DNA of 51,680 nucleotides from Planctomycetota bacterium (GCA_044359835.1 JBIKLM010000001.1:1-51680); one strand, 5' to 3'; counted from the stretch's first letter, positions 14,269 through 51,055 are shown. Notes: generated from the letters alone by a model not told the origin. Program-made: numbers and translations.

Positions 14269-14462
14269 GGGCTTGCTCGTCGTCTTCTGAGGCCAGGGGA
14301 CCCGCGGCGGGCGGCGCCGCTTCCATTCCTTTGAGCCCGGCCCGCCGGGCAGGTTCCTGAGCCCGAGGGATCCCGCCGAAACCACCTATGGCGAGGCGGG
14401 CCCTGCGCCGCTCGGGCCGCCGGAGAATCGCGAGCGCGCCCGCCCGGGCCGCGGCCCGAGCC

Positions 14463-15242: not shown

Positions 15243-15658
15243 CGCGGTCGGGAGGGGCCCTGGGCGGCGCCTATGCGCCGGGCGTCGGCCCAAGGGGTGA
15301 GAGCCGCGCCGAAAGCGCGGGTTCGCGGCGAGGCCAGGATTCCACGGGGAACCGCGCGGCCAGCGCGGCTTCCTCCGCTGGCGGCAGGCAATAGCCTCCA
15401 GGGTCTGGCTCTCCGGCGATCGAGGCCCCCGGTATCTCTTGCTCGAAGTCCGCGCTGCCGCCGCCGAGGATCAGCATCTGGAACTGCTGCTGGCTGGCGG
15501 TCGGCACCGCAAGGCACGCGGGTCACGGGAAGGGTCCGGGTTCGGCGGGACCGCGCCCCTGCCCAGAGGCGCGGCCCGCCGATCCACCCGGCGGCGCTGC
15601 GAGGAGGCGGCGCCGTCGGGCCGGGCGCTGCCCGCGCCCGCGGATGGAGGAGTTCAGG

Positions 15659-24386: not shown

Positions 24387-24590
24387 GCCGGGGCGGGCGT
24401 CGGGTTGGCGCCGGGCCTTGGTCCATCGCGGGGGCTTCGGGACCCTGGCGCGGACAAGCGGAGCGTGGGCTGCCCGCCCCAGGCCCAACCCGACGGCAGG
24501 ACGGCATCTGCGTGGATCCGATCGCCAGCGCCCGGGAACCAGCCCGCTATGCTGGCATCCAAGGAGTTGCGCCCAGTGCGCCCGCCGCCC

Positions 24591-24968
24591 ATGGAAAAGA
24601 AATTGAGCGTCTACGACCCGGCCCTCTGCTGCTCCACCGGGGTCTGCGGGCCCGCGGTCGATCCCGAGCTGGCCCGTGTCGCCGCCGACCTGGCCTGGTT
24701 GGCCGATCAGGGGGTGGCCGTGGAGCGCTACAACCTCTCCCAGCAGCCGGCCGCTTTCGCGCTGAATTCCCTGGTGCGCGGTGCTTTGGAGCGCGGCAAT
24801 CAGGTGCTGCCGCTGGTCGTCGCGGACGGGCGCATCGTCGCGGAAGGGCATTACCCATCTCGGGAGACTTTAGCGGCGCTGTGTGGGCTGGTGCTGCGCC
24901 CCGCAGCGACCCAGCCGACCCCGGCCAACGCCTGCCGCCCGCAGGCCAGCGGCGGCTCCTGCTGCTGA
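24591..24968 (+). CDS. arsD: arsenical resistance metallochaperone/repressor ArsD
   Basis: MEKKLSVYDPALCCSTGVCGP reproduces the ArsD N-terminus with the Cys12/Cys13/Cys18-equivalent triad. A thioredoxin-like remainder and a C-terminal GGSCC follow. An in-frame GTG at 24576, preceded by AAGGAG, is an alternative start. Confidence 0.85.
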   Translation: MEKKLSVYDPALCCSTGVCGPAVDPELARVAADLAWLADQGVAVERYNLSQQPAAFALNSLVRGALERGNQVLPLVVADGRIVAEGHYPSRETLAALCGLVLRPAATQPTPANACRPQASGGSCC

Positions 24969-25204
24969 TCTGCGTAGAAGGCATCGTCTCGGGCCGCGCC
25001 CGAGCCATCCGATCAGGCCTCCCGCAGGAACTCGCCTGGCGACTCTGCGGGCATCGGGCCGAGAGCGAAGTGCCGGCCGGCGCATCGTCCAAAGCCTCGA
25101 CCGAAGACCGGCGCATGCAGCTTGTCGACGGCCCAAGGCGCGATGTGGGCCTGCTGCGCTAGAGGCGGCTCGCAGACGCGGCTTGGCTTTGGCGCCCGAT
25201 TCCC

Positions 25205-27085
25205 ATGTCCGCTCAACGACCCGCTCCCATGCCAAAGCCCAGTCCGATCGTTTTCCTAGAGGATCCGCCGCGCATCCTGCTCTTCACCGGCAAAGGTGGG
25301 GTCGGCAAGACCAGCGTGGCCTGCGCCACCGCGCTGCGTCTGGTGAGCCTGGGTCGGCGGGTGCTGCTGGTCAGCACCGATCCGGCTTCCAACCTGGACG
25401 AGGTGCTCGGGGTGGCCTTGGGTGCGAGCCCCACGCCCGTACCCGGGGCACCTGGCCTGTCCGCACTGAACATCGACCCGGTGGCGGCCGCGGCCGCCTA
25501 TCGTGAGCGCTTGGTAGGGCCCTACCGGGCCCTGCTGCCTGCGGCGGCTGTGCGCAGCATCGAAGAGCAGCTCTCCGGCGCCTGCACCGTCGAAATCGCG
25601 GCCTTCGACGAGTTCTCCAAGCTGCTCGGCGATCCCGCGGCCAGCGCGGACTTCGATCATGTCGTGTTCGACACGGCACCGACCGGCCACACCCTGCGGC
25701 TCCTGGAGCTGCCGGCCGCTTGGAGCGGGTTCCTAGGCAGCGGCGGTGGCAGCGCCTCTTGCCTTGGGCCCCTGGCGGGGCTCGAGGCCCAGCGTGGACT
25801 GTACGCCTCGAGCCGTGCCGCCCTCGAGGATCGAGCACGCACGCTCTTGGTCCTCGTGGCCCGCGCTGAATCCGCGGCTTTGCGCGAGGCAGAGCGCACG
25901 CGCGCCGAGCTCGCCGCGCTGGGCATCGGCAACCTGGCGCTGGTGATCAACGGACGCTTTCTGGCCGGGGAACCGAGCGATCCCGTGGCGGCAGCCTTCC
26001 AGCGGCGCGACGAGACGGCGCTGGCAGCCTTGCCCAGGGGGCTGGCGGCTCTCCCGCGGCTCGATCTGCCGCTGCTGCCCTTCGGACTGGTGGGTCTGCA
26101 GGCCCTGGAACGGCTCCTGCCGGACGGCGTCGGGTTGTCTGTGCCTGCCCTCGACATGCGCGCCGAAAAACCCGGAGCCGAGGCTCTTGCCGCGCGGAAT
26201 CCCTTGACGGGCGCCGAAGTCCCCGCGACCCAGGATCTCCCCCCGGGGCTCGAGAGCCTGCTGCCCGAACTCGAACGGCCCGGCCATGGCGCGATCTTGA
26301 CCATGGGCAAGGGCGGGGTCGGCAAGACCACCGTGGCGGTGACTCTGGCGCTCGAATTGGCGCGCCGCGGGCATCGGGTGCACCTGACGACCACCGATCC
26401 CGCCGCTCATGTGAGCGCTGCCCTGATCGCGGCGGCGGGCGAGCGATTGCCGCCGGGCCTGACTGTCGATCGCATCGATCCGGCGGCGGAGGTCGCCGCC
26501 TACAGCGCCGAGGTCTTGGCCAAGGCCGGGGCCGCTCTGGACCCCGCGGGTCGAGCGCTGCTCGAAGAGGATCTGCGCAGCCCCTGCACCGAGGAGATCG
26601 CGGTATTCCAGGCTTTCGCTCGCCGGGTCGACCGCGGCCGCGACGCTTTCGTGGTGATCGACACCGCCCCGACGGGGCACAGCCTGCTCTTGCTGGACGC
26701 GGCCGAGAGCTACCACCGCGAGGTCGAACGATCGAGCGGAGCGGTGCCCGAGGAGGTCCGCCGCCTGCTGCCGCGCCTGCGCGACCCAGAATTCACGCGC
26801 ATCCTGCTGATCACGCTCCCCGAGGCCACGCCGGTGCACGAGGCCGTGCACCTGCAGTCAGACCTCGGACGCGCCGGAATCCGCCCCTTTGCCTGGGTCA
26901 TCAACCAAAGCCTCAGCCCGCTGAGATTGCGGGATCCGCTGCTGCTGCGCCGCCGCGCCCACGAAGCGCGCTACATCGCCGAGGTGCTGGCCCAGGGATC
27001 GAGGGTTGCCCTGTTGCCTTGGTCCGCAGCGGAGCGAGCGCCCGCTTCCCAGGTCGTTTCTGAGGCTTCCCGCACGATTCCCTAG
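25205..27085 (+). CDS. arsA: arsenite-stimulated ATPase ArsA (two homologous halves)
   Basis: P-loops FTGKGGVGKTS and GKGGVGKTT. Signature motifs DTAPTGHTLRLL and DTAPTGHSLLLL. The three As(III)-ligand cysteines have the expected context (GACTVEIAAFDEF, SASCLGPLAGLE, SPCTEEIAVFQAF). The ATG at 25229 is an alternative start. Confidence 0.9.
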   Translation: MSAQRPAPMPKPSPIVFLEDPPRILLFTGKGGVGKTSVACATALRLVSLGRRVLLVSTDPASNLDEVLGVALGASPTPVPGAPGLSALNIDPVAAAAAYRERLVGPYRALLPAAAVRSIEEQLSGACTVEIAAFDEFSKLLGDPAASADFDHVVFDTAPTGHTLRLLELPAAWSGFLGSGGGSASCLGPLAGLEAQRGLYASSRAALEDRARTLLVLVARAESAALREAERTRAELAALGIGNLALVINGRFLAGEPSDPVAAAFQRRDETALAALPRGLAALPRLDLPLLPFGLVGLQALERLLPDGVGLSVPALDMRAEKPGAEALAARNPLTGAEVPATQDLPPGLESLLPELERPGHGAILTMGKGGVGKTTVAVTLALELARRGHRVHLTTTDPAAHVSAALIAAAGERLPPGLTVDRIDPAAEVAAYSAEVLAKAGAALDPAGRALLEEDLRSPCTEEIAVFQAFARRVDRGRDAFVVIDTAPTGHSLLLLDAAESYHREVERSSGAVPEEVRRLLPRLRDPEFTRILLITLPEATPVHEAVHLQSDLGRAGIRPFAWVINQSLSPLRLRDPLLLRRRAHEARYIAEVLAQGSRVALLPWSAAERAPASQVVSEASRTIP

Positions 27086-28703: not shown

Positions 28704-28836
28704 CAGGCTGAGAAAAAATCGACTCGGGCTGCGCCCGAGCAGTCAGACCAGCCTGTCAGCATGCCTTTGGGCCGCCATCCGGCGGCCGCAGAGGCTGGGA
28801 TCGTCGCTGCGCGCCGATTTTTTCCCAGCCTCTGAG
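28701..28836 (+). repeat. structured intergenic repeat, copy A (long imperfect palindrome starting at the upstream gene's stop codon)
   Basis: It shares the core GAGAAAAAATCGACTCGGGCTGCGCCCGAGC...GCCTTTGGGCCGCC.TCC.GCGGCCGCA.AGGCTGGGATCG with 44130..44250 (83 of 98 positions identical by hand alignment). Its left half is shared with 38607..38745. There is a 7-bp hairpin at 28723-28739. The outer arms GGCTGAGAAAAAATCG (28706-28721) and CGATTTTTTCCCAGCC (28815-28830) are complementary except for one position. Confidence 0.8.
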
Positions 28837-38609: not shown

Positions 38610-38745
38610 CCGGCGGAGAAGAGATCGACTCGGGCTGCGCCCGAGCCACCGGACGAGCCCGACCGATGCCTCTGGGCCGCCGTCCGGCGCCGGGGAGCGC
38701 CGGGGGCCCTGCGGGCGGCCAACGGGGGGCCGAAAAAGCAGCAGA
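38607..38745 (+). repeat. structured intergenic repeat, copy B (right half degenerate)
   Basis: It starts at the TGA of the DUF1801 gene. CTGACCGGCGGAGAAGAGATCGACTCGGGCTGCGCCCGAGCC...GATGCCTCTGGGCCGCCGTCCGGCGCC aligns with copies A and C. An identical 7-bp hairpin lies at 38629-38645. Confidence 0.7.
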
Positions 38746-38852
38746 AGCCCACCAAATCACCTCGTGCGGGCCTTGACGGCGTGGCCCAGGGTTGGTCCAG
38801 GGCCTCGCTCTCGCCTTGACCTGCGCCCGCGGGGCCCCCGAACATCCCCGGG

Positions 38853-39551
38853 ATGGCCCGCGAGGGGCAAACATTTGGGTACGAGGGCGCCAGCGGGCCG
38901 CCCAGCGGGACCGCCCCGGCTCTGGCCGCCGGGCAGCAGCAGCTCCGTGATCTGATCGAACCGCCGCCGGTGCACGCCCGCCTGTCCGGCGATTGGCTGC
39001 GGGGCGCCCTGGCGATGACGCGCAGCGCAGGCGACTTCTTCGTGCGCTTCGAGGGCGATCCGCTGCTCGAGGGCCGCGCCCGAGCCGCCCAACACCTCTA
39101 CCAGCGCTGCCTGCTGGTGGCCCCCGAACGGCTGGCCTCCCGGGCCCTGGCGCTGCTCTCCGTGCGCTCCCGGGGCTGGCGCGGCCTGCCGGCGGTCGAG
39201 CAGCTGCTCGCGCGCTGCCACGAGGATGGCGCCGCCCAGCTGGTGCTCGAGGACGAGCGCGAGGAGGACTACGGCCTCTCCGCGGAACCCGGCGTGCTGG
39301 GCCAATACGCCATCGCCGGCGAGCTCTTCGGCCTGGCCAGCGCCCACTGGCGCCTGGCGCTGGTGCGCTTCAACCGCCTGCCGTTCCCCGAACGGCGGGG
39401 TCTCTTCGATTGGGTCGTGCGCGGCATCGACCCTCCCGCCGATCCGCAGCACGCGGCGGCGGGCCAACCGCCGTCGCCCGGCTGGAACCTGCCCCGGGCG
39501 CGCTCGCTGCTGGCCGAGGTGCTGGCCTTACCCGAGGGAGGTGCTTCATGA
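38853..39551 (+). CDS. module 1 gene A: cytoplasmic protein with a sigma-70 region-4-like C-terminal segment (family not recognised)
   Basis: It is a paralog of 44585..45322, alignable along its full length by eye (23/36 identical in the block GELFG...RFNRLP..RR.LFDWV.RG). The stop overlaps the next start (ATGA). No TM or signal sequence. Confidence 0.7.
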   Translation: MAREGQTFGYEGASGPPSGTAPALAAGQQQLRDLIEPPPVHARLSGDWLRGALAMTRSAGDFFVRFEGDPLLEGRARAAQHLYQRCLLVAPERLASRALALLSVRSRGWRGLPAVEQLLARCHEDGAAQLVLEDEREEDYGLSAEPGVLGQYAIAGELFGLASAHWRLALVRFNRLPFPERRGLFDWVVRGIDPPADPQHAAAGQPPSPGWNLPRARSLLAEVLALPEGGAS

Positions 39552-40450
39552 AATCCCGTTCGATCAGCCCGGCGCTCGAGCAGCTCCTCGCAGAGCTGGC
39601 CCAGCGGCCGGATTCGATGCTCTTCGGCCGCGCGGCCGCCGCCTCCACCGAGCGGCTCGAGTCCGCCGCGCCGCGCCTGTGGACCGGCAAGGAGCCCGGC
39701 CTGACCGCCGCCGAGCAGGAGTTGCTGCGCGGCTATCGCGAGGAGCTCAGCGGCCTGATCCGCCAGCTTTCCTTCGGGCTGACCCGCAGCCTGCCGGGGG
39801 TCTCGGCGCTGCTCGATCCCCGGCTCGACGCCGAAGCGCGCGCGCGGGCCCTGCCCAGCGACGAGCTGGCCGAGCGCCGCGCCGCCGCCGCGCGCCTGCC
39901 CGAGCGCGACCAGTGGATCCCCGGGGCCGCGCGCCTGCTGCGCGCCCTCGAAGGCGAGCTGACGCGGCCCGAGGAGGCCCTCGAGCTGCTGCGCCAGGGC
40001 CAGCGCTTGGCGCCGCACCCGATGACTTTGCAGCACCAGGCCTTCTGGCTCGAGCGGCTCGGCCGGCCCGACGAGGCGCTGCAGGCGGCCCTGGCCGGCT
40101 GGCGCAGCGCGCGCGATCCGCTCTGGCGCACCGCCCTGGCGCTGATCCTGGGCCGCATCCACTTCGCGACCGGCCGCTACTCAGCCGCTTCGCACTGGTA
40201 CGGCCTGGCCCAGCGCCATGAGCCCAGCCTGGCGGCGGCCCTTTCCGCTTGGCACTGCGCCCTGCGCGCGGGGCAGAGCAGCGCCGCCGAAGCCCACGCG
40301 GGCGCCGCCTTCGAGCTGGCGCCCGACGCGGCCCGCGCCGCGCGCGAGTTCAAGGCCTTGGCGCGCGCCGCCGGCGCCGAGCTGCATTTGTCGCGCGGGC
40401 ACGGCCCGCGCTCCGACCGCTGGGTCTCGGCCTTCGTGGAGGTGGTCTGA
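39548..40450 (+). CDS. module 1 gene B: cytoplasmic all-helical (TPR-like) protein
   Basis: ATG preceded by GGGAGG. It is a paralog of 45319..46233 (ISPAL..LL.ELA..P.S.LFGR 16/23 identical; LLR..REE...L.RQ.SF.LTR.LPG; TLQH.AFW). The C-terminal half is Ala/Leu-rich and repeat-like. No TM. Confidence 0.7.
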   Translation: MKSRSISPALEQLLAELAQRPDSMLFGRAAAASTERLESAAPRLWTGKEPGLTAAEQELLRGYREELSGLIRQLSFGLTRSLPGVSALLDPRLDAEARARALPSDELAERRAAAARLPERDQWIPGAARLLRALEGELTRPEEALELLRQGQRLAPHPMTLQHQAFWLERLGRPDEALQAALAGWRSARDPLWRTALALILGRIHFATGRYSAASHWYGLAQRHEPSLAAALSAWHCALRAGQSSAAEAHAGAAFELAPDAARAAREFKALARAAGAELHLSRGHGPRSDRWVSAFVEVV

Positions 40451-40692
40451 TGGTCCGCGCCCTGCCTGCCACGCCGCGCGCGCGCCGTCTGCTGCTGTTG
40501 GCCCTGCTGGGGCTGGCGGGCCTGGCGCCCGCCCAGGTCTCCGGCGTCGGGCCGCCCAAGCCCAAGGCCGAAGGCCAGCTCAGCGCCCGCGACAAGCTCA
40601 AGCGCAGCGCCCCGCCGCCGGTGATCGAAGGCGGCAACGGCCCCGTGACCAGCCGGGGGCAGAAGCAGGAAGAGGTCATTCCCAAGCCGTGA
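40450..40692 (+). CDS. module 1 gene C: 80-aa exported Pro/Lys-rich protein
   Basis: The ATG shares one nucleotide with the upstream TGA (TGATG). MVRALPATPRARRLLLLALLGLAGLAPAQV is a signal peptide. The mature part is low-complexity. Gene C of module 2 has the same length and position. Confidence 0.55.
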   Translation: MVRALPATPRARRLLLLALLGLAGLAPAQVSGVGPPKPKAEGQLSARDKLKRSAPPPVIEGGNGPVTSRGQKQEEVIPKP

Positions 40693-40706
40693 GGGAGCGC
40701 CGTTCC

Positions 40707-43700
40707 ATGCCGGCCCCGGGGCGCCGCGCGGCCCTGGGCCTGGCCGCCCTGGCGGCGGCCCTGGGCCTGGCCCTCTGGGCGGGCTCGCAGGGTCCCTGGA
40801 GCGGCATCGCCCGTGTTCCGGGGGGCTCGCGGGCCGCGCTCGCGGGCGCCGCTGCGACCCTGCCGGCGTCCGCCGCGGACGTCCGAGCCGCCGGGCTTGC
40901 GGAGCGATCCGGAGCGCAGCAAAGCCCCGCGGAGCTCGGCCCCCGATCCCTCGCCGGCGCGCCCGCCGCGGCCGCCCCGCAGGCGCCCGAGGCGATCCGC
41001 GCGGGCCCCGAAGCGCGCGCGGGCCAGCTCTTGATCCTCGGCCCCGACGGCGCGCCGCTCGCAGGCGCCGAGCTCTCCGCGCACCTCTGGGATGCGGAGG
41101 TCTATCAGACCCTCGACGACAGCGCCGGGAACCTGGCGCTCTGGCACCTGCCCGGCCGCAGCGCGGCGCTGGCCCAGCGGCGCCTGGCCGGCTGGTCCGA
41201 CGCCAGCGGGCGCCTGGCCCTCGAGCGCAGCTTCGAGCTCGTCGATCCCGAGACCGATTTCGAGTTTTGTTGGGTCACGCACCCGCGCGCGCGGGCGGCC
41301 CTGTTCCAGCGCTCGGTGGGGGAGTCCTGGCCCGCGTCCCTGCGCCTCGAGCCCGGGCGGGCCGCGACCGCGCGCGTGACCATCGCGGGCGCGCCGATCG
41401 CCGGCGCCCGGCTGGTGCAGCAGGCCCTGCCGCCCGAACAGGTCGGCGCGGGCAGCCTGGCCGGGGAGGCGCTGATGCGCCGCGCCCTCGAACGCCGCAG
41501 CGAAACCGATGCAACCGGCGTGGCCCCTCTGCTCGACCTGGGCGGACCGATGTGGGTCTGGGCCGAGGCCGAGGGGCAGCGCTCGCTGCCGGTGCGGCTC
41601 GGCGAGCCGGGCCCGCTCGAGCTGGAGCTCTTGCCCACCTGGAGCCTCGAAGCCCTGGCGCGCTCCCTGGACGGCAGCCGGCTCGAGCGCGAGGCCCTGG
41701 TTTCGATCGAATCTATCGCCGTCGGCGATCCGGCGCTCGCCGGCCAGCCCCTGGCCAGCGTGCAGAGCCCGGACGGCGTGCGCTTCGGTCCGCTGGAGCT
41801 GCCGCGGCTGCCCGCGGGACGCGAATACCTGCTGCGCCTGTGGCAGGGCGGCAACCGCGAATGGACCGCGCGCTTCCCGGCGCCGCTCGGCTCCGCCTGG
41901 AGCCTCGAGATGCCCTTCGTGCGCGGCGTCGATCTGGCCGTGTTCCCGGTGGCGCTCGAAGACGGCGCCGCCCTGGCGGGTGCGCGCGTCGTCGCGCGGC
42001 CGAGCGGCGGAGCGCCCGGGGCGATCCTCGAGCGCCGCGCCGACGCGGACGGCATCGCCCTGCTGGCGGGCCTCGACGCCGAGCTGGCCTACGACATCGA
42101 GGCCCAGGCCCCCGGCCGCGCCCCGCGCACGATCGTGGGCGTGCGCGTGGCGCCCGGCGAGCGCCGCAGCGCCTTCGATCTGCCCCTGGCGCGCGCCGCG
42201 ACGCTCTCCGGACGGGTGCTGCTCGACGGCCAGCCGGCGTCGGATTTCGTGCTGATCCACAGCACCGCCGTGCTCGGCCAGTACCAGCGCCGCGCCTTCG
42301 GACCGCAGGCCGCGGGCGCTTTCCTGCTGGAGGACCTGGCCGAAGGCCCCCTGACGATCCTGGCCGAATTGCCCGGTCTGGGCCTCACGCCGCCGGCGCG
42401 GCTCGAGCTGCTGGCCGGCTCCGCGGCGGCGCAGAGCGTCGAGCTCGAACTCGGCCCCGGCCAGCGCGCCGCCGGTCGCCTCGTGGACGCGCAGAGCGGC
42501 GCGCCGATCGCCGCGGCGCGCCTGACGCTGCTGAGCGGCGATCCCCAGCGCCCGCGGGCCAGCATGCCCCTGCCCCAGGTCTCCGATGCCCTGGGCCATT
42601 TCGAGCTCGAACGCCTGCATCCCGAGGCCAGCGCCCTGTGCATCGAGGCCCCGGGCCATCGGCCCGAACTGGTCGCTCTGGCATGGCCGAGCGAGCCCCG
42701 CGGCGCGGCGCCGCTTCACTTCGGAACGATCGCCCTCGATCCGCTCTCCGACCTGTCCGTGCGCCTCGAAGGCGCCGCGGATCCGACGCGCTACCAGGTC
42801 GCCCTGGGTTTCCGCCCGCGGGGCCCCAGCGTGGCCTTCGACGCCGCCGGGCGCGCCAGCCTGCCGCTCGACCGCGCCGCCGGCGAGCTGACCCTGCGCC
42901 ACCCGAGCGGGGTCGAGGACCTCTACGCCCTGGATGGCTCTGCATCCGACGCGGGCGAAGTGCGCCTGTGGGTCGACGAAGGCCGCCGCCTCGAGCTCCT
43001 GCCCACGGGCGCCGGCGCCGGCGGGCCCCGCGAGGCGCTCGACCTGAGCCTGGATGCAGAGGCCGCTGCGGCCCCGGCGGAGCCGAGCGCCGCGTTGGAC
43101 GCAGGGGCTTTGCCCGCGGGCGCCGACGCCGACCTGCTCGACGTCTGGATCAAGTTCACCGACCCCGAGGGCCGCCCCGGCCTGCGGCTGCTGACGCTCT
43201 CCGATCGCAGCCGCGCCACGCGCGTGCCGGCCATCCCCGCCCGGGTCCTGTACCTGCAATGGAGCTACGGCGCGCCCGCACGCAGCGCGCAGGCCAGCGT
43301 CACGCTCAGCGGCGCGGCCCTCGAGCGCATCGAGCTGCCCCTGGGCGCCGCCAATTGGCCCCTGCGCCTGATCGACGCGGCCGGCCGCGGCCTGCCCGGC
43401 GTGCGCATCGAGGTCTACCAGCGCCCGCCCGGACAGGCGCTCAAGCTGCTCGGCCAGCGCCTCAGCGACGCGGAGGGCCTGGCCCAATTGCCCAGCGCGC
43501 CTGCGGGAGAGCTGTGCCTGGCGCTGCAGGGTCCCGACGGCGGCGTGCTCGCCGATGTGTGCCTGACGGCCGCCGATTTCGGCCTCGCCGCGCCGGCCCC
43601 GGGCCGCCGCGCGCAGGACGCCGGACACCATGCGCTGCCCCTCTGGCTCGGCGAGCCGCGGCTCGTCGAGCGCGTCTTCGATCCGCGCCTGACGTTCGAA

Positions 43701-44132
43701 TTCGTCTTGCGCGACGAGGACGGACCCCTGGCCGGCGCGCGCCTCGATTGGAGCGCCCTGGACGGCCAGCTCGCGCTCGGCAGCCTGTTCAGCGACGATT
43801 CCGGCCGCGCGCGCCGCACCGCCCTGGGCCCCGGTCCCTATCGCATCGCCATCGAAGCCCCCGGCCACTGGCCCCTCGAATTCGAGCTCGATCTGCCCGC
43901 GGAGGGGCTGCCGCCGCTCGAGCTGCGCCTGCCGAGGCGCGTGCTCTTCGAGCGCACCCTGCTGGGCGCCGACGGCCTGCCGCTGGCGGACCAGCCCGTG
44001 CTCCTCTCCGTGCCCGACCTGCCCCCCGGCGCGCGTTTGATCGGCTGGCCGCCACTCGATCTCGCCACCGACAACCTGGGCCGGGTGGGCCCCCTCGAAG
44101 CCCCCAGCGGCGCGCTGGCAGAGCCGCGCTGA
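40707..44132 (+). CDS. module 1 gene D: 1141-aa exported or membrane-anchored protein made of carboxypeptidase-regulatory-like beta-sandwich repeats
   Basis: The ATG at 40707 lies 10 nt after GAGGGAG. MPAPGRRAALGLAALAAALGLALWAG is the anchor or signal. There are multiple units such as LSGRVLLDGQPASD..., AAGRLVDAQSGAPIAAARLTLL...DALGHFELERLHPEASALCIEAPGHRP and LRLIDAAGRGLPGVRIEVY...SDAEGLAQL. Confidence 0.8.
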   Translation: MPAPGRRAALGLAALAAALGLALWAGSQGPWSGIARVPGGSRAALAGAAATLPASAADVRAAGLAERSGAQQSPAELGPRSLAGAPAAAAPQAPEAIRAGPEARAGQLLILGPDGAPLAGAELSAHLWDAEVYQTLDDSAGNLALWHLPGRSAALAQRRLAGWSDASGRLALERSFELVDPETDFEFCWVTHPRARAALFQRSVGESWPASLRLEPGRAATARVTIAGAPIAGARLVQQALPPEQVGAGSLAGEALMRRALERRSETDATGVAPLLDLGGPMWVWAEAEGQRSLPVRLGEPGPLELELLPTWSLEALARSLDGSRLEREALVSIESIAVGDPALAGQPLASVQSPDGVRFGPLELPRLPAGREYLLRLWQGGNREWTARFPAPLGSAWSLEMPFVRGVDLAVFPVALEDGAALAGARVVARPSGGAPGAILERRADADGIALLAGLDAELAYDIEAQAPGRAPRTIVGVRVAPGERRSAFDLPLARAATLSGRVLLDGQPASDFVLIHSTAVLGQYQRRAFGPQAAGAFLLEDLAEGPLTILAELPGLGLTPPARLELLAGSAAAQSVELELGPGQRAAGRLVDAQSGAPIAAARLTLLSGDPQRPRASMPLPQVSDALGHFELERLHPEASALCIEAPGHRPELVALAWPSEPRGAAPLHFGTIALDPLSDLSVRLEGAADPTRYQVALGFRPRGPSVAFDAAGRASLPLDRAAGELTLRHPSGVEDLYALDGSASDAGEVRLWVDEGRRLELLPTGAGAGGPREALDLSLDAEAAAAPAEPSAALDAGALPAGADADLLDVWIKFTDPEGRPGLRLLTLSDRSRATRVPAIPARVLYLQWSYGAPARSAQASVTLSGAALERIELPLGAANWPLRLIDAAGRGLPGVRIEVYQRPPGQALKLLGQRLSDAEGLAQLPSAPAGELCLALQGPDGGVLADVCLTAADFGLAAPAPGRRAQDAGHHALPLWLGEPRLVERVFDPRLTFEFVLRDEDGPLAGARLDWSALDGQLALGSLFSDDSGRARRTALGPGPYRIAIEAPGHWPLEFELDLPAEGLPPLELRLPRRVLFERTLLGADGLPLADQPVLLSVPDLPPGARLIGWPPLDLATDNLGRVGPLEAPSGALAEPR

Positions 44133-44250
44133 CCGCCAGAGAAAAAATCGACTTGGGCAACGCCCGAGCCGCAGGAGCAGGCTGTCCGCAGGCCTTTGGG
44201 CCGCCGTCCTGCGGCCGCACAGGCTGGGATCGACGCCTCGGGCTGGATTC
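44130..44250 (+). repeat. structured intergenic repeat, copy C
   Basis: It starts at the TGA of gene D1. 83/98 positions are identical to copy A by hand alignment. The hairpin at 44152-44168 keeps its pairing through a T-G (G-U) wobble that works only in a plus-strand RNA. Confidence 0.8.
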
Positions 44251-44584
44251 GTTGTTCAGGGCCTGACCGAGCGGTCGGGCGCCTCTCGGCCCGCTCCGGC
44301 GGAGGCGTGGGCCGCAAGCCCGCGCTGCGCTAGACGCGCGCCAAACCCAGGGCCGCCGCCGGCCAAGCCCCCGAGCCCCGGCCGAATCCGGGGAGCGCTT
44401 CGGGGCCCCAGCTCCCCTCCAGGGGCAGCGCATCGGACGGCGAGGGGCCGCGGGTTGCGGCTCGACCTCGGGGGGGCATCTCCGCCGGGCCGCCGCTTTG
44501 TATCGGAAATGTAAGAAATTCCCCGTCGTACCGGCGCTGGGGAGCGGTCTTGACGGGCAGCGGGGGCCTGGGGACGATTCGGCC

Positions 44585-45322
44585 ATGCACTCCGGCGGGC
44601 GGCCTCCCCATGCGGACGGAGACGAGCGAGGTCCCCTCGCCGGCGCCGTCTCCGGGCCCGCGAATGCGCTCCCCCAGGACCTGGCCACGGCCTCGGCCCA
44701 GCGCCAGCTCAGCCAGCTGCTCGAGCCCGGCCGCGTGCTCGGCCGCCTCGACGCGGACTGGCTGCGGCGCGCGCTCAGCGAGGCCGGCAGCAGCCGCACC
44801 TTCTGCGAGCGGCACCTCGAGGATCCGATCCTCGAGCTGTTGCCCCGCGCCGCCGTGCAGCTAGCAGAATCCGCGCTGCTGATCGATCCCGAGCGTTTGG
44901 CGGAGCGCCTGATCGCGCTGCTCGCGGTGCGCGGTCGCTTCTGGCCCGCGGGGCAGTCGGTCGAAGCGCTGCTGCGCCGCTGCCTCGACGACGGCATCGA
45001 TCAGATCCTGCACGAAGACATGCTCGACGAAGCCCAGCACCTGCCGCCCGAGCCGGGTTTCGAAACCGACCACGCCCTGGCCGGCGAGCTGTTCGGCGTG
45101 CCCGAGCCGTTCCAGCGTTTGGTGCTGCTGCGCTTCAACCGTTTGCCTGCGGGGCAGCGCCGCACGCTTTTCGATTGGGTCGCCCGTGGGACGGAACCGG
45201 CCGGAACCGTTCCTGGGAAGGCCGGGACCAAGGGCCGGAATTCGGAGCTCCGGTTGACGCTGGACGCCGCCCGGGCCATTCTCTCCGAGGTCCTCGCCCT
45301 GCCGAGGGGAGGTGCGCGATGA
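44585..45322 (+). CDS. module 2 gene A: paralog of 38853..39551 (sigma region-4-like C-terminal segment)
   Basis: I chose the ATG at 44585 by comparison with the paralog. The ORF is open from TTG 44498. The end ...EVLALPRGGAR overlaps the next start (ATGA), exactly as in module 1. Confidence 0.65.
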   Translation: MHSGGRPPHADGDERGPLAGAVSGPANALPQDLATASAQRQLSQLLEPGRVLGRLDADWLRRALSEAGSSRTFCERHLEDPILELLPRAAVQLAESALLIDPERLAERLIALLAVRGRFWPAGQSVEALLRRCLDDGIDQILHEDMLDEAQHLPPEPGFETDHALAGELFGVPEPFQRLVLLRFNRLPAGQRRTLFDWVARGTEPAGTVPGKAGTKGRNSELRLTLDAARAILSEVLALPRGGAR

Positions 45323-46233
45323 GCCGCAACCGTTGGATCAGCCCGGCCCTCCAGGGCCTGCTCGACGAGCTCGCCAGCAGCCCGTCTTCGGTGCTGTTCG
45401 GCCGCGGCGCGGCCCTGGCGCCGGGGGCCCAAACCAAGCTGGCCAGCGCCCACCGCGCGCCCGAGCGCTGGAGCGGCCGCGAAACGGGTCTGCTGGCCAT
45501 CGAGCGCGAGCTGCTGCGCGCCCACCGCGAAGAGGTCGGCCATCTGGTGCGCCAGGTGTCCTTCGCCCTCACGCGGCGCCTGCCGGGCCTGGTCGAACGC
45601 CTCGACCCCCAGCTCGACCGCGCCGCCCAAGCCCGCGCCCTGCCCCGCGAGACCCTGCAGCAGACCCAGCGCGAACTCGCCCGCCTGGACCCCGACCAAC
45701 CCCGCAGCGTCGCCCGCCTGGCCCAAGCCGTCCAGCTCGACCTGCAAGACCCCCGCGACGCCATCGCACTCCTGCGCCAAGCCCAACGCATCGCGCCGCA
45801 CGCGAGTACACTGCAGCATACCGCCTTTTGGAACGGTCAACTGGGCAATCTTCAAGACTGCCTAGGCGCGGCGATCCAGGCGATCTCCTTCTGTTCAGCT
45901 GGCCCTGAATTCGTCGCCGCTCAGATCTCTGCGGGTTTCGCCTCATTCGAGCTGGGCGCCTTCTCAAGAGCGGCTGAGCACTATTCCAGAGCTCACTCGG
46001 TCGACGGATCGGTGCATTTGTTGGCAACCAGCTGGCTATGCAGCCTCTTGTCTTCGTCGCCGAGCGCGGAGTTCCTTGCTCGAGATCTGCTGCAAGAGTT
46101 GGCTCGGAACAGCGAGGTAGTCGCCTGGCTCCGAAGCTATTCAGCGAGCGAGTGTCTAGGGCTTATCGGTCGGTCAGCCACTGACCCCGAATCACTGAAA
46201 GTCCACCGGATGCTTCAGGAGGCGGTCACATGA
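45319..46233 (+). CDS. module 2 gene B: paralog of 39548..40450 (helical/TPR-like)
   Basis: ATG preceded by GGGGAGG. The N-terminal 190 aa are collinear with B1. The C-terminal third is divergent and encoded by markedly lower-G+C DNA. Confidence 0.7.
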   Translation: MSRNRWISPALQGLLDELASSPSSVLFGRGAALAPGAQTKLASAHRAPERWSGRETGLLAIERELLRAHREEVGHLVRQVSFALTRRLPGLVERLDPQLDRAAQARALPRETLQQTQRELARLDPDQPRSVARLAQAVQLDLQDPRDAIALLRQAQRIAPHASTLQHTAFWNGQLGNLQDCLGAAIQAISFCSAGPEFVAAQISAGFASFELGAFSRAAEHYSRAHSVDGSVHLLATSWLCSLLSSSPSAEFLARDLLQELARNSEVVAWLRSYSASECLGLIGRSATDPESLKVHRMLQEAVT

Positions 46234-46472
46234 ATCCTCCCCGGAGCTTCCGGCGCTCGTTGCTTCTGCTTGAGGTCGCTTTGGCCGGCAGCTTGTTCTA
46301 TCCGACTCCTGTTGAGTGCCAGGCCACCAACGGCATTGCACCGCCGCTGGCTGCGCAGGCGCCGGAACTCGACCGTGGGGATCGTTTGGGTCGGGCCGCC
46401 GGTCAGTCGGGCGGCGGGGGGGCTTCGCCGGTGGTCGGCTCGGGCGGAGGTCTGCCGAACGGACGGGGTTGA
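46230..46472 (+). CDS. module 2 gene C: 80-aa exported Gly-rich protein
   Basis: ATGA overlap with gene B2. MNPPRSFRRSLLLLEVALAGSLFYP is a hydrophobic N-terminus. The Gly-rich tail reads GQSGGGGASPVVGSGGGLPNGRG. Its length is identical to C1 (80 aa). Confidence 0.5.
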   Translation: MNPPRSFRRSLLLLEVALAGSLFYPTPVECQATNGIAPPLAAQAPELDRGDRLGRAAGQSGGGGASPVVGSGGGLPNGRG

Positions 46473-46588
46473 TCGGGCGCGAAGGGCCGCCCAGGGTCTG
46501 GCGGTTTGCCTTGGATTGGTCGATCGGAGGGGCGTGTAAGCGGCGCTTCCGCCTGCTTTGACCTCGGGCTGGTTAGCCTGAGGCTCTG

Positions 46589-48550
46589 ATGGCTCGATCG
46601 GCCGAGAGTCGGAACCCTCTCCTCCCTTGGCTGCTGCTCGTGGGCTTGGCGGGGGCGGGGGCTTGGCTTGGGATTGGGAGGGGGTCCGGGAAGGGCGCTG
46701 CCGCGGATCTCGGGGGCGTAGCGGCGCCTGAAGACGGGGCAGAGGGGCGCGCGGCGCCGGGAGCGCCGGAGCTGGACGGGTCCCTCGAGCCCGCCGCGTT
46801 GTTGGAGGGCCGCGTGGTGCACGACGGACGGCCGGCGGAACACTTCCGGATCCACGCGGCCGACCGCCGGAGCGGGCTTTGGCGCGCGTGGAGCTTTGGG
46901 CCGCAGGCCCAAGGCCGATTCCGCATCGAAGGGGCCAGCGCCGGCGAGGTCTGGCTGCACGCGGAGGTGCCCGGGGCCGGGTTCTCGGCGCGGGTTCAAG
47001 CGCTGCTGCCCGCGGACGAGCCGCTGGTCCTGGAGGTCGGCCCGGGCGTGCGCGGCCGCGGGCGGGTGGTCGATCTCGAAAGCGGCCGGCCCGTGGCCGG
47101 CGCGCGCATCGATTGGCTGCTCGGCCGGCTCGACCTGCCGATCGCGCGCGGCGAGAGCGGCGTGCGCAGCGACGCCGAGGGCCGCTTCGAGATCGGCGGG
47201 CTGCATCCCGATTCGGTCGGCCTGGCGATCAGCGCGCCGGGCTATCGCGAGGGCGAGCTCCTGGCGCCGCCCGGCGACGGGCCTGTGCGCGAGCTGGGGC
47301 TGGCGCGCCTCGAACGGAGCGCGCCCCTGGCGCTGCGTCTGCTGGGCGCCGCCGAGTCCGAGGGCTTCCGCCTGGCCGCCGGTTTTCAGGTCGGCGGCGG
47401 TGGACAGGCCTTCGACCGGGGAGGGCAACTCGACCTGCCGCTCGAGCGCGAGACCCGTTTCGTGACCCTGCGCTGGCCCCAGGGTTTCGAGGACACCTAC
47501 TTCGTGGAGCCCGGCGAGCAGAGCCTGGTGCTCGAAGTCGAGCCGCAGCGCGCCATCGAGCTGCGCGCGCTCGGCGCCGTGCCGCAGGACCCGGGGCCGG
47601 CCTTGGGCGTGCTGCTCAAGTGGATCGACCGTCGCGGGCGGTCGGTGCGTCGCTGGGCGAGCATCGAGGCCTCGGGCGAGCCCTTGCGCCTGCCGGGCAT
47701 CCTGGCGGAGCGGGTCGACGCGGAATGGACCCACGGGCGCGCGCCGGGGCGGTCCCTGAGCAGCTTCGAGCTGGGCCGCGAACCGCTCGCGCGCCTCGAC
47801 CTGCCGCTCGGCGGCGGCGGCTGGCTCGTGCGCATCGTGGACGCCTCCGGCCAGCCGCTGGCCGGGATCGAAGCCGTGTTGTACCAGCGCCTGGGCGGCG
47901 CCGTGCGGCGCGGTTTCGACGCCGGGCCCAGCGACCTCGCGGGCCTGCTCGAACTGCCGCGGCCCTTGGCGGGCCAGGCCTTCCTGACGCTGCTCGACGG
48001 GCGCGGCGGCGTGTTGCCCGAGCGGCTCCTGCGCGACGGGGATTTCGGGCTCGAGCCGCCCGAGCTGCGTTTCGCGCCGACGGGGCGGGTCGAGCTCGAC
48101 TTTCGCCTGCTCGGCCAGCCCCTCGCGGAGGTCACCGTCCGCTGGGAGTGCGCCGCGGGCAACGTGCTGCTGGCGCCCTGCTGGAGCGACGCGGGCGGGC
48201 GGCTCCTGCGCCAGGGCCTGGGCCCGGGCCGCTATCTGCTCCTCTTCGAGCACCCGCGGCTCTGGCCGTCGCGGCTCGAATTCGAGCTCGACGGGCAGCA
48301 CACCGGGGCGCTGGAGCTGACCGGCGCCGTCCCCCTGGACCTGCCCGTGGCCGAGCGTTTGCCCGGCCTCGACCCCCAAGCCCCCCTCGCGCTCGAGCTG
48401 CTCGAACCGCTCCCCGAAACGACCCTGCTGGCCTGGCCGCCCGCCGCCCTGGCCCTCGACGCGGACGGGCACCTGCGCCTGCCGCGCGCCCCGACCGGCC
48501 GGCTGCGCCTGCGCGCCGGCGCCGAGAGCTTCGAATTCGAGCACCGCTGA
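46589..48550 (+). CDS. module 2 gene D: 653-aa membrane-anchored protein with carboxypeptidase-regulatory-like repeats
   Basis: MARSAESRNPLLPWLLLVGLAGAGAWLGIG is the anchor. Units include LEGRVVHDGRPAEHFRI...GRFRIEG and GRGRVVDLESGRPVAGARIDWL...SDAEGRFEIGGLHPDSVGLAISAPGYRE. Confidence 0.75.
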   Translation: MARSAESRNPLLPWLLLVGLAGAGAWLGIGRGSGKGAAADLGGVAAPEDGAEGRAAPGAPELDGSLEPAALLEGRVVHDGRPAEHFRIHAADRRSGLWRAWSFGPQAQGRFRIEGASAGEVWLHAEVPGAGFSARVQALLPADEPLVLEVGPGVRGRGRVVDLESGRPVAGARIDWLLGRLDLPIARGESGVRSDAEGRFEIGGLHPDSVGLAISAPGYREGELLAPPGDGPVRELGLARLERSAPLALRLLGAAESEGFRLAAGFQVGGGGQAFDRGGQLDLPLERETRFVTLRWPQGFEDTYFVEPGEQSLVLEVEPQRAIELRALGAVPQDPGPALGVLLKWIDRRGRSVRRWASIEASGEPLRLPGILAERVDAEWTHGRAPGRSLSSFELGREPLARLDLPLGGGGWLVRIVDASGQPLAGIEAVLYQRLGGAVRRGFDAGPSDLAGLLELPRPLAGQAFLTLLDGRGGVLPERLLRDGDFGLEPPELRFAPTGRVELDFRLLGQPLAEVTVRWECAAGNVLLAPCWSDAGGRLLRQGLGPGRYLLLFEHPRLWPSRLEFELDGQHTGALELTGAVPLDLPVAERLPGLDPQAPLALELLEPLPETTLLAWPPAALALDADGHLRLPRAPTGRLRLRAGAESFEFEHR

Positions 48551-48622: not shown

Positions 48623-51055
48623 ATGAGTTTCCTCCGTCGAATCCAGCTCGCGGCCGCCCTGCTGCTTCTGATCTGCCCGCTGATCGCTGCCCAACAAGCG
48701 GGCTATCGCCTGCCCTCGCAAGCGATCGTCGATGTGCTCGACGCGCCGCCGACCCCCAGCGTGGATTTCGCGCCGAACGGCCAGCGCTTCCTGCGCATCC
48801 AGCGCCCGGCCATGCCGTCGATCGCCGAGGTGGCCGCGCCCTGGGAGGGGCTGGCGGGTCTGCGGATCGTGCCGGAGCTGCGCTCGCGGCGCCTGCTCGG
48901 GCTGCCCACGCGCATCGAGGTGCAGGACGTCGCCGGCGGCCCGGCGCGGGCCCTGGCGCTGCCCGAGGGAGCGCGCGTGGCCTCCTGGGCCTGGTCGCCG
49001 GACAGCCGGAACATCGCGCTGCTGCTGGTGGGCGAACAGGGCCTTGGCCTGTGGCTGGCGGATCCCGCCAGCGGCGGCCTGCGCCCGATCCAGGGCGGCC
49101 TCAACGCCGTGCTCGGCCGGCCCTTCGGCTTCATCGGATCCGGCGAGGGCCTGTGGATGCTGCTGATCGATCCGGCCGTGGAGGCGCCCGAACAGAGCGC
49201 CGTGCCCAGCGGGCCCGCGGTGCAGGAAACCGCCGGCACCAGCGCGCCCCTGCGCACCTACCAGGATCTGCTCGATGGCCCCGAGGCCGAGGCGCGCTTC
49301 GGATTCCTCGCCACCAGCCGCTTGGCCATTGTGGACCTTGCCGAGGGCCAGCCGCGCCTGGTCGGCGAAGCGGCGTTGATCCGCAGCGTCGAGGCTTCGC
49401 CGGACGGCTCGCTGTTCCTGGTCCAGACGGTCGAGCGGCCGTTCAGTTATGTGCTGCCCCTGGAGAGCTTCCCCACGCGCTACGCGGTCTGGGACCGCGC
49501 GGGCCGCGAGGTCCAGCGCGTGGTCGATCGGCCCCTCGGCGATCGCATCCCGATGGAGGGCGTGCCGCTGGGCCCGCGCAACGTGACCTGGCACCCGGCC
49601 GAGCCGGCCACGCTGGTCTGGACCGAGGCCCAGGACGGCGGCGATCCGGCGCGGCCCGCCGAGCTGCGCGACATCTGGTACGCCCGCGCCGCTCCGTTCC
49701 AGGAGCCGGCGCGCGAGCTGGCGCGCCTGGCCCAACGCGCCTCCGGCCTGGCGGCGCTCTCGGAGTCCGGTCGGCTGCTGGTCAGCGAATACGACCGCGA
49801 TCGGCGCTGGACGCGCACCTGGCTGCTCGACCCGCGCCAGAGCGAGGTGGCCCCGCGCCTGATCGAGGACCGCAGCAACAACGACCGCTATGGCGACCCG
49901 GGCACGCCGCTCAGCGAGCCGAACAGCCGCGGGCAGAGCGTGGTGCGCGAGCGCGGCGGGCGCATCCTGCGCTCCGGGCCGGGCCATAGCCCGGCGGGCC
50001 CGCGGCCGTTCCTGGCGCGCGAGGACCTGGCCAGCGGCGAGCGCGAGATCCTCTGGCGCAGCGCGGAAGGCCGCTACGAGAGCGTCGCGGCCCTGCTGGA
50101 CGAGCAACTGACCGGGGCCGCGCTGGTCTTCGCCAGCGAAAGCGCCACGGAGCCCACCAACTACTTCGCCTGGAGCACCGGCCAGGAGCCGCGGCCGCTG
50201 ACGGACTTCGCCGATCCGACGCCCCAGCTGCGCCAGATCCGCCAGGAGCTCCTGACCTATCAGCGCGCCGACGGCGTGCCGCTCTCCGGCACGCTCTACC
50301 TGCCCGCGGACTACCAGGAGGGCACCAAGCTGCCGCTGTTCATCTGGGCCTATCCGCTCGAATACAACGACAGCAAGACCGCCGGCCAGGTCACCAACAC
50401 GACCACGCGCAGCCTGCGCCTGCGCGGCGCGACCCACCTGGCCCTGCTGCTGGCCGGTTACGCGGTGCTCGACAACGCCACCATGCCGATCGTCGGCGAT
50501 CCCGAAACGATGAACGAGACCTTCATCGAGCAGATCGTCGCCGCCGCCCAGGCCGCCATCGACGCTTGCGTCGCCCGCGGCGTCTGCGCGCCCGAGCACG
50601 TGGTCGTCGGCGGCCACAGCTACGGCGCCTTCATGACCGCCAACCTCTTGGCCCACAGCGACCTGTTCCGGGCCGGCATCGCGCGCAGCGGGGCCTACAA
50701 CCGCTCGCTGACGCCTTTCGGCTTCCAGAGCGAACGCCGCACCCTCTGGCAAGCGCCGCAGACCTACATCGAACTCTCGCCCTTCTTCGCCGCCGACCGC
50801 ATCGACGAGCCGCTGCTGATGATCCACGGCGAGATGGACAGCAACCCGGGCACCTTCCCGACCCAATCCGAACGCCTCTACGCCGCCGTCAAAGGCAACG
50901 GCGGCACCGCCCGCCTGGTCATGCTGCCCGCCGAAGACCACGGCTACCAAGCCCGTGAATCCTGCCTCCACGCCATTGCCGAAATGGTCGACTGGTGCGA
51001 ACGCTTCGTCCGCCCCACCCCCCCAACCCCCACCGAAGCCGCCGCCCCGCGCTGA
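48623..51055 (+). CDS. S9 family serine peptidase (prolyl oligopeptidase / glutamyl endopeptidase-like) with an N-terminal beta-propeller
   Basis: Signal peptide MSFLRRIQLAAALLLLICPLIAAQQ. Nucleophile elbow VVGGHSYGAFMTANL. IHGEMDSNPG (Asp) and PAEDHGY (His) lie in the C-terminal alpha/beta domain. Confidence 0.85.
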   Translation: MSFLRRIQLAAALLLLICPLIAAQQAGYRLPSQAIVDVLDAPPTPSVDFAPNGQRFLRIQRPAMPSIAEVAAPWEGLAGLRIVPELRSRRLLGLPTRIEVQDVAGGPARALALPEGARVASWAWSPDSRNIALLLVGEQGLGLWLADPASGGLRPIQGGLNAVLGRPFGFIGSGEGLWMLLIDPAVEAPEQSAVPSGPAVQETAGTSAPLRTYQDLLDGPEAEARFGFLATSRLAIVDLAEGQPRLVGEAALIRSVEASPDGSLFLVQTVERPFSYVLPLESFPTRYAVWDRAGREVQRVVDRPLGDRIPMEGVPLGPRNVTWHPAEPATLVWTEAQDGGDPARPAELRDIWYARAAPFQEPARELARLAQRASGLAALSESGRLLVSEYDRDRRWTRTWLLDPRQSEVAPRLIEDRSNNDRYGDPGTPLSEPNSRGQSVVRERGGRILRSGPGHSPAGPRPFLAREDLASGEREILWRSAEGRYESVAALLDEQLTGAALVFASESATEPTNYFAWSTGQEPRPLTDFADPTPQLRQIRQELLTYQRADGVPLSGTLYLPADYQEGTKLPLFIWAYPLEYNDSKTAGQVTNTTTRSLRLRGATHLALLLAGYAVLDNATMPIVGDPETMNETFIEQIVAAAQAAIDACVARGVCAPEHVVVGGHSYGAFMTANLLAHSDLFRAGIARSGAYNRSLTPFGFQSERRTLWQAPQTYIELSPFFAADRIDEPLLMIHGEMDSNPGTFPTQSERLYAAVKGNGGTARLVMLPAEDHGYQARESCLHAIAEMVDWCERFVRPTPPTPTEAAAPR

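Follow-up and report, generated by a model that had tools for sequence, protein, structure and literature searches.

The window analysed here, a 51,680-nt stretch of DNA from a Planctomycetota bacterium (GCA_044359835.1 JBIKLM010000001.1:1-51680) with a G+C content of about 72%, carries two neighbouring cassettes on the same strand, each composed of four genes in the order A-B-C-D (Table 1). These cassettes, termed modules 1 and 2, are discussed below as candidate regulatory operons linked to exported proteins. All eight open reading frames (ORFs) are open over the coordinates listed, begin with ATG and end with TGA. Their codon bias is of the coding type, with a G+C content at third codon positions of 0.86-0.94 and lower values in B2 (0.78) and C2 (0.70). 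Stop and start codons overlap at the A/B and B/C junctions of both modules, the B2/C2 pair again sharing ATGA. Ribosome-binding sites of the form GGAGG or GGGAGG are embedded in the final codons of the preceding gene, 6-9 nt 5' of the start codons of B, C1 and C2. An earlier reading of the same DNA, referred to here as the original prediction, had described the two cassettes, their overlaps and the embedded sites in just this way. Hydropathy profiles also agree with it in separating a cytoplasmic pair from exported proteins coupled to it: A and B have no hydrophobic segment, and a single N-terminal one is present in each of C1, D1 and D2, with a weaker one in C2.

Table 1. Genes and signals of the two modules, with their positions in the window
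Feature	Position	Strand	Description
A1	38853..39551	+	232 aa, cytoplasmic, all-alpha, divergent ECF-sigma-like (ECF, extracytoplasmic function)
B1	39548..40450	+	300 aa, soluble; ~95-residue helical N-terminal domain, family unassigned, then C-terminal tetratricopeptide repeats (TPRs); start overlaps A1 stop (ATGA)
C1	40450..40692	+	80 aa; predicted Sec signal peptide (APA/QV, slash marking the cleavage site), remainder Pro/Gly/Lys-rich with Q-x-x-G-x-x-P-P; start overlaps B1 stop (TGATG)
D1	40707..44132	+	1141 aa; hydrophobic N-terminus (anchor or signal) followed by repeats of a CarboxypepD_reg-type beta-sandwich domain
A2	44585..45322	+	245 aa; A1 paralogue, 46% identity
B2	45319..46233	+	304 aa; B1 paralogue, 44% identity; ATGA overlap with A2
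C2	46230..46472	+	80 aa, predicted exported peptide; G-I-A-P-P-L motif, C-terminal PNGRG
D2	46589..48550	+	653 aa; N-terminally anchored beta-sandwich repeats; homologous to C-terminal 660 residues of D1; 116-nt gap 5' of D2
Promoter-like motif, module 1	38816..38845	+	TTGACC, 18 nt, GAACAT; ends 7 nt before A1 ATG; kept in related loci L001, L009 and L013
Promoter-like motif, module 2	44550..44578	+	TTGACG, 17 nt, GACGAT; ends 6 nt before A2 ATG; kept in L003-L008 orthologues
Dispersed ~100-nt extragenic repeat, hairpin-containing	24975-25080, 28710-28815, 38616-38720, 44139-44245	+	copies precede module 1 and follow D1 stop

The paralogy of the two modules is far beyond chance. In BLAST comparisons A1 and A2 are 46% identical (E = 6e-53), B1 and B2 44% (E = 3e-48), and D2 is 33% identical to residues 480-1137 of D1 (E = 5e-65). 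The B alignment spans residues 1-228 of 300 and the final ~70 residues are weakly similar, so that the original claim of end-to-end alignment is a little too broad for B. No significant BLAST similarity was found between C1 and C2. The original prediction was right that the exported components diverge faster than the cytoplasmic ones: the D identity lies below those of A and B and C gives no match at all, and the same gradient is seen in comparison with the related locus L001 (A 92%, B 86%, D 76%). A module at another locus, L017, allows the duplication to be placed. Module 2 shares 47% (A) and 51% (B) identity with it, as against 46% and 44% with module 1, and module 1 is 40% identical to L017 for A and for B. 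Since module 2 is nearer to L017 than to its own neighbour, the duplication is old, and sequence comparison identifies the two modules as an ancient duplication of one conserved operon. Neither a third module nor further paralogues of any module gene were found elsewhere in the window.

The A proteins have many relatives, most of them of similar size. A word-indexed homologue search returned four proteins for the A1 query and six for a 40-sequence alignment, and a search for related loci with a four-sequence A alignment gave two metagenome loci. With a six-sequence profile, an exhaustive HMMER search yielded 309 cluster representatives (E <= 1e-3), nearly all of 170-250 residues. The family consensus reads GDPL..R..(n)..RA.L.D..RL..RA.AR.A..A..Y.G.P.L..WL...ID.A...LL.ED.E.E..G.P...(n)...LG.EP..ARRAC..FN.LP...RR.FFA.V.EGKS......G.G.PE.V...L..AL.A. 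Its Y-G...WL...I segment resembles the pattern of ECF region 2.3/2.4, and its C-terminal half has the LP...R and helix-turn-helix pattern of sigma-70 region 4.2. When 150 of these relatives were scanned singly against Pfam and NCBIfam, 17 matched Pfam Sigma70_r4_2 (best E = 3.2e-10) and 21 matched the TIGR02937 sigma70-ECF model (best E = 1.2e-6); almost all remaining weak NCBIfam matches were to ECF sigma models, and Sigma70_r2 was not among the top 25 families matched by the 150. One relative, P0112, aligns without a break to positions 17-163 of the 165 positions of TIGR02937, which covers both domains. Two members of the family are named 'sigma24 family' in IMG.

Profile and structure comparisons lead in the same direction. 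Among PDB entries, the A-family profile matched GerE and, from M. tuberculosis, the sigma-4 domains of SigD (E = 0.019) and SigC (E = 0.14). With hhalign, the family aligned to an alignment of RpoE, AlgU and SigW at P = 4.2e-4, collinearly from region 2.3/2.4 (Y-G..WL) to the end of region 4.2. An AlphaFold model of A built from six sequences was unusable, with a predicted local distance difference test score (pLDDT) of 51. The model built from the 40-sequence alignment is confident and all-alpha (pLDDT 89.9, predicted template modelling score 0.84), and its size and helix count fit the ECF family. In a Foldseek search the structures nearest to it include the ECF sigma factors SigH, SigG1, SigW-RsiW, AlgU-MucA and RpoE-RseA. 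Outside the A1/A2 clade, most relatives retain the sigma-4-like helix-turn-helix consensus (G-K-S...A-E-G-x-G-P-P-E-x-V). Thus the A family very probably descends from ECF sigma factors. The statement that A and B match no family, as first made, is therefore true only of the curated models in the case of A, and fails for B, which is a TPR protein. No bona fide ECF sigma gene was found elsewhere in the window.

In B the TPRs are unmistakable at profile level and occupy residues ~130-260. They are preceded by ~95 conserved N-terminal residues with the pattern ..SP.LE.LL.E.A..P.S.L......GL..AERELLRVHR.EL..LLR.., for which Pfam gave no match and a profile comparison with the PDB nothing better than E = 0.6, which is noise only. 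A hidden Markov model of this region finds the corresponding proteins of loci L020 and L022, absent from its training set, at E = 1e-22 and 1e-19, respectively. These comparisons indicate that the N-terminal domain of B is new.

The C proteins are always short (60-90 residues) and share a common design, in which the N-terminus is first basic and then hydrophobic, an A-x-A-like site comes next and the tail is rich in Pro and Gly. The Sec signal was judged from hydropathy together with the A-x-A motif; in C2 the hydrophobic stretch is a weak one. Both window copies have indeed 80 codons and a hydrophobic N-terminus, as had been noticed before; their mature parts, taken at that time to be unrelated, are not wholly so, because the motif Q-x-x-G-x-x-P-P is common to nine aligned C proteins, directly after the predicted signal-peptide cleavage site. 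Within the module-2 clade (C2 and its counterparts in L006 and L017) the C-terminal P-[NT]-G-R-G is kept despite differing third codon positions, and the middle of the protein varies. The synonymous changes in conserved codons show that the C ORF is under protein-level selection and that C2 is a real gene.

The original description of D1 and D2 as N-terminally anchored proteins built from CarboxypepD_reg units agrees with the hydropathy profiles and with Pfam, in which PF13620 scores 84.8 bits over three stretches of D1 and 68.8 bits over two stretches of D2, against a cut-off of 32.3. D2 gave no match to PDB sequences. Homology of D extends across loci, with tblastn E-values for D1 of 1e-32 against L018 and 2e-12 against L019. 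Another protein of the window (669 aa, 19857-21866, +) has a sub-threshold CarboxypepD_reg match (E = 7e-6) and no tblastn similarity to D1 or D2. A gene for an S9 (prolyl oligopeptidase family) peptidase with a signal peptide follows D2 after 72 nt (48623-51055, +), and in L017 an S8 subtilase gene (13018-14196) is located 3' of A-B-C. These exported peptidases adjoining the gene of a Pro-rich secreted peptide could be processing enzymes, or their position could be a coincidence.

Homology searches show that the module is conserved well beyond the window genome, in distant lineages. The nearest genome is a Planctomycetota metagenome-assembled genome (MAG) from Lake Mendota, in which A is 95% identical and the tandem arrangement is the same. 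Further modules come from a Planctomycetaceae MAG (GCA_016125265) and from GCA_050480685. A GTDB scan returned one locus, from a near-identical MAG, and says little on distribution because its patterns were narrow. An overlapping B-type gene lies 3' of A in every core-family lineage with downstream sequence, namely in the window (twice), L001, L009, L003-L008, L011-L013, L015, L017-L020 and L022. An overlap of C with the 3' end of B is seen in both window modules and in L001, L009, L003-L007, L011, L012, L015, L017, L018, L019, L020 and L022, and D follows A-B-C in L001, L009, L015, L018, L019, L020 and L022. The order A-B-C-D is found in at least five further lineages, Planctomycetota MAGs among them, and is present in L015, L018, L019, L020 and L022, where A is only 24-30% identical. 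The co-occurrence of the four genes on which the original prediction had been staked is therefore real as to their order, which recurs in other lineages, and does not extend to D as an obligatory member.

At one locus A and B are joined. A single 496-aa ORF on a metagenomic contig (L023, 1055-2545, protein P0070; JGI 3300036992, Ga0394830_0009056) carries an A-like domain fused in frame to a B-like N-terminal domain and TPRs. This fusion, from a single contig in which an assembly artefact is possible, is a Rosetta-stone hint that A and B interact physically. Remoter sigma-like relatives of A (L010 8001-9703 and L021 7001-11107; proteins P0153 and P0164) have other downstream partners. In L010 the partner gene codes for a protein longer than 381 aa. 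The first partner in L021 has 223 aa and a stretch that faintly resembles B, and the second is a 924-aa protein with weak matches to sigma-54-activator AAA+ domains. From these two loci, the A-type sigma-like core seems to have been combined with other modules as well.

Each module has one candidate promoter. The pattern TTGACN-N16-19-NANNAT, found as TTGAC[CG]-N17/18-GA[AC][CG]AT, occurs exactly twice on the plus strand of the window, in each case directly 5' of an A gene, and L013, which retains the module-1-type motif, is a distant relative. Unlike B and C, the A genes have no Shine-Dalgarno sequence 5' of their start. As the motif abuts the A ATG and this sequence is missing, the A transcript would be leaderless, and we infer one housekeeping-type promoter per module. 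A sigma-70 promoter scanner found nothing at strict thresholds. Extra TTGAC[CG] hexamers are located at 38773, ~80 nt 5' of A1, and in the C2-D2 spacer (46555-46591), where TTGACC begins at 46558, 25 nt before the D2 ATG; four of the 20 plus-strand copies in the window fall within ~800 nt of the module spacers. D2 may have an internal promoter of its own.

The explanation that best accommodates these results, and that we regard as probable, is that the modules are operons of a divergent ECF-sigma-like regulator and a soluble TPR partner, tied to exported proteins. A would be a very divergent ECF-type (group 4) sigma-like regulator. The N-terminal domain of B would bind A, the TPRs of B would take up a protein or peptide cue, and translational coupling would give A and B in fixed proportion. 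B might either restrain A, as a soluble anti-sigma factor, or be required for the activity of A, as is the fused TPR extension in the ECF42 group. The small Sec-exported peptide C and the large membrane-anchored beta-sandwich protein D would be co-transcribed with A and B and would act as envelope-side input, output, or both. Within this scheme we infer the binding of RNA polymerase by A, the binding of A by B, the export and cleavage of C, and the direction of signal flow.

Several observations weigh against this explanation. Neither A1 nor A2 has a match of its own in Pfam, NCBIfam, PADLOC or the PDB sequences, and the matches of the A family to sigma models, where checkable, all fall under the curated cut-offs, P0112 scoring 21.6 bits against TIGR02937 with a cut-off of 42.9. 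The Foldseek E-values of the full-length A model are 0.8-6, none of them significant; this is probably due to the orientation of sigma-2 and sigma-4, which differs between solved states. The acidic region-2.2 motif conserved in ECFs is not evident in A. In the A1/A2 clade a Pro-rich, poorly modelled loop (A1 residues ~190-212), much enlarged in P0005, stands in place of the first helix of the sigma-4 helix-turn-helix, and for this reason canonical binding to a -35 element is doubtful. It follows from the loop and from the position of A1 and A2 below all curated thresholds that their present function as sigma factors is less sure than the descent of their family. The predicted promoter of A is housekeeping-like and not of the ECF type, so that the usual ECF autoregulation is not indicated. 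In B1 and B2 the Pfam and NCBIfam scans detected no recognisable anti-sigma domain (ASD, zf-HC2 or NepR/CnrY-like), only TPR matches apart from a weak one of B1 to the LcrH/SycD chaperones (E = 0.029). Two lineages have A-B-C without D. In L003-L008 (ENA ERZ10661xx, Logan ERR3440692), which hold a module-2 orthologue with an A that is 81% identical, D is replaced by a gene for a 191-aa protein with an HSDR_N domain, the N-terminal domain of type I restriction enzyme R; in L017 a gene for a 105-aa protein and the S8 peptidase gene come after A-B-C. Downstream of the A-B fusion in L023, neither a C nor a D gene is present.

Parallels to the proposed organization exist among known sigma systems, each with differences. 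Like rpoE-rseABC and algU-mucABCD, the modules have a small, apparently two-domain (sigma-2/sigma-4-like) protein first, a coupled partner gene next and genes of exported or membrane proteins after it, within one operon, and the A family is remotely similar, in sequence and in fold, to RpoE, AlgU, SigW, SigH and SigD. Unlike in those operons, A1 and A2 score below every curated sigma model and have a sigma-4 helix-turn-helix that is partly a Pro-rich loop, the partner B has TPRs and neither a transmembrane segment nor a recognisable anti-sigma domain, and the module promoter is not ECF-like. The exported partners, of which one is a Pro/Gly-rich peptide of ~50 residues and the other a protein of CarboxypepD_reg repeats, are also unlike RseB/MucB-type proteins. 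In ECF42 sigma factors a C-terminal TPR extension of ~200 residues is essential for activity (PMC7826278, PMC8999054). The modules resemble this group by layout, with a sigma-like core joined to a TPR module of ~200 residues, which in P0070 forms a single polypeptide; they differ from it in that the TPR module of the window is encoded by a separate overlapping gene and has an extra conserved N-terminal domain of ~95 residues. ECFs with soluble anti-sigma factors have been described as well, including zinc-associated anti-sigma (ZAS) and partner-switch types (PMC8999054). With these B shares its cytoplasmic location and a gene beside the sigma gene. Unlike ZAS proteins, it has no H-x3-C-x2-C zinc motif or detectable anti-sigma domain and has a TPR sensor domain instead.

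A different function would follow if C were a pheromone. In such a peptide switch a processed fragment of C, for example the C-terminal P-[NT]-G-R-G, would be re-imported and bind the TPRs of B, which would then release or activate A, and D or a neighbouring exported peptidase would aid the processing or capture of C. In rap-phr cassettes, too, a small ORF overlaps the 3' end of the TPR gene, and the general layout of the RRNPP systems is similar: a cytoplasmic protein of 250-500 aa combines an N-terminal effector domain with C-terminal TPRs, and the small gene that follows and overlaps encodes a Sec-exported pro-peptide whose tail is conserved. The published RRNPP signature comprises a peptide of 10-100 aa with a Sec signal and a receptor of 250-500 aa with C-terminal TPRs, encoded by adjacent genes (PMC10075063), and B and C have all five of its features (C of 80 aa with a basic-hydrophobic N-terminus, B of 300-304 aa with TPRs in its C-terminal half, genes overlapping by 1-4 nt). 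The mature RRNPP peptide is formed by the C-terminal 4-10 residues (PMC10075063), a rule that agrees with the conservation of the last five C residues seen in the module-2 clade beside a variable middle, and both the window and L017 have genes of exported peptidases (S9 and S8, respectively) shortly 3' of these modules. RRNPP systems are, however, not known outside Firmicutes and the mobile elements of these bacteria (PMC10075063), whereas the present host belongs to another phylum and is a diderm planctomycete, in which re-import would have to cross two membranes. The TPRs are generic, and the Pfam and NCBIfam scans revealed no homology to the Rap, NprR, PlcR, Rgg, PrgX or AimR receptors. The C-terminal conservation of C is restricted to one clade, and no oligopeptide permease turned up nearby, although no search was aimed at one. 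Moreover, the presumed target would be a sigma-like protein encoded upstream, unlike the response regulator or DNA of RRNPP systems, and the peptide is longer and Pro/Gly-rich. A peptide pheromone is thus unlikely to explain the modules.

The degenerate, Pro-rich helix-turn-helix of the A1/A2 clade raises instead the question of whether A, although derived from a sigma factor, has any role with RNA polymerase. If it has none, A and B could form a cytoplasmic adaptor or chaperone that helps C and D to be exported, folded or anchored, with B resembling a TPR class-II secretion chaperone, or A resembling the sigma-mimic domain of PhyR in partner switching. The housekeeping-like promoter and the LcrH/SycD match of B1 would fit such a role, and a few A relatives match PhyR sigma-like models (Pfam PF22233, E = 4.6e-5; NF006623, E = 6.8e-5). 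These PhyR and LcrH matches are few and weak, however, and the sigma-4-like helix-turn-helix consensus is intact in most A relatives outside the A1/A2 clade. The A-B pair also persists at loci without C, D or both, which fits a regulator better than a dedicated chaperone, and we consider it improbable that A is a pseudo-sigma factor serving export. There is still less to recommend the reading of the four components as an entirely novel system, for surface, adhesion or sensing functions, that is unrelated to known regulator families; this we judge very improbable. A1, A2, C and the N-terminal domain of B do match no curated model, and a literature search, which did not cover two planctomycete ECF surveys, found no description of this architecture; several independent lines nevertheless link the A family to ECF sigma factors, and B is a TPR protein. 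The original view that the modules have no characterised counterpart is accordingly sound in so far as no characterised orthologue was found, and too strong in that the operon is best read as a divergent member of the class of operons that pair a sigma factor with a partner regulator. A defence system was also considered, and is not supported by PADLOC.

If the preferred reading of a sigma-like regulator with a TPR partner is followed, the modules are best described as belonging to a divergent branch of the ECF sigma factors that is unclassified and has unusual partners, rather than as a system without relatives. ECF sigma factors are classified with Pfam-type models. As the A family, with at least ~300 sequence clusters, escapes models of this kind, it is likely to be missing from current ECF censuses of Planctomycetota and their relatives, and the signalling of Planctomycetota is largely uncharted. 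The soluble TPR protein and its new N-terminal domain, the small conserved peptide predicted to be secreted and the large beta-sandwich protein of the envelope are all unlike the partners of studied sigma systems, and the operon may reveal a new coupling of the envelope, or of a secreted peptide, to transcription. The adjacent ancient paralogues offer a natural experiment on partner specificity (A1-B1 versus A1-B2). Should the pheromone reading be true, it would place RRNPP-style encoded peptide signalling outside Firmicutes, wired to a sigma factor and not to a response regulator or repressor.

The spacers upstream of A1 and A2 are ~80% identical over their first ~95 nt. This similarity was considered as a module-specific regulatory element and rejected, since it reflects a dispersed repeat that also follows two unrelated genes (24975 and 28710). 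The repeat (Table 1) has the core GAGAA.A.ATCGACTCGGGCTGCGCCCGAGCC, then TGGGCCGCCGTCC.GCGGCC, and each of its copies begins ~7 nt past the stop of a plus-strand gene, these being the genes of ArsD, a beta-lactamase-family protein, a DUF1801 protein and D1. No copies are expected by chance. A scan of the whole window against Rfam gave no match, the repeat included, and in RNA folding predictions neither the post-gene repeats nor the D2-S9 spacer outperformed shuffled sequences. The repeat may be a terminator or an element similar to repetitive extragenic palindromic (REP) sequences.

Elsewhere in the window, the arsD gene (PF06953, E = 2e-39) is found side by side with arsA (E = 7e-72), both of arsenic resistance (24549-27085, +). 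In a cluster related to the handling of sulfur (13666-17053, -), a rhodanese that ends in a YgaP-like transmembrane tail is accompanied by a TauE/SafE sulfite exporter and by a protein in which a metallo-beta-lactamase and a rhodanese are fused. Two minus-strand genes without Pfam match, encoding 799 and 971 aa (7381-9780 and 9777-12692), overlap by 4 nt, and an upstream gene for a haloacid dehalogenase (HAD) hydrolase (12689-13237, -) overlaps the 971-aa gene by 4 nt as well, which makes up another translationally coupled set of unassigned function.

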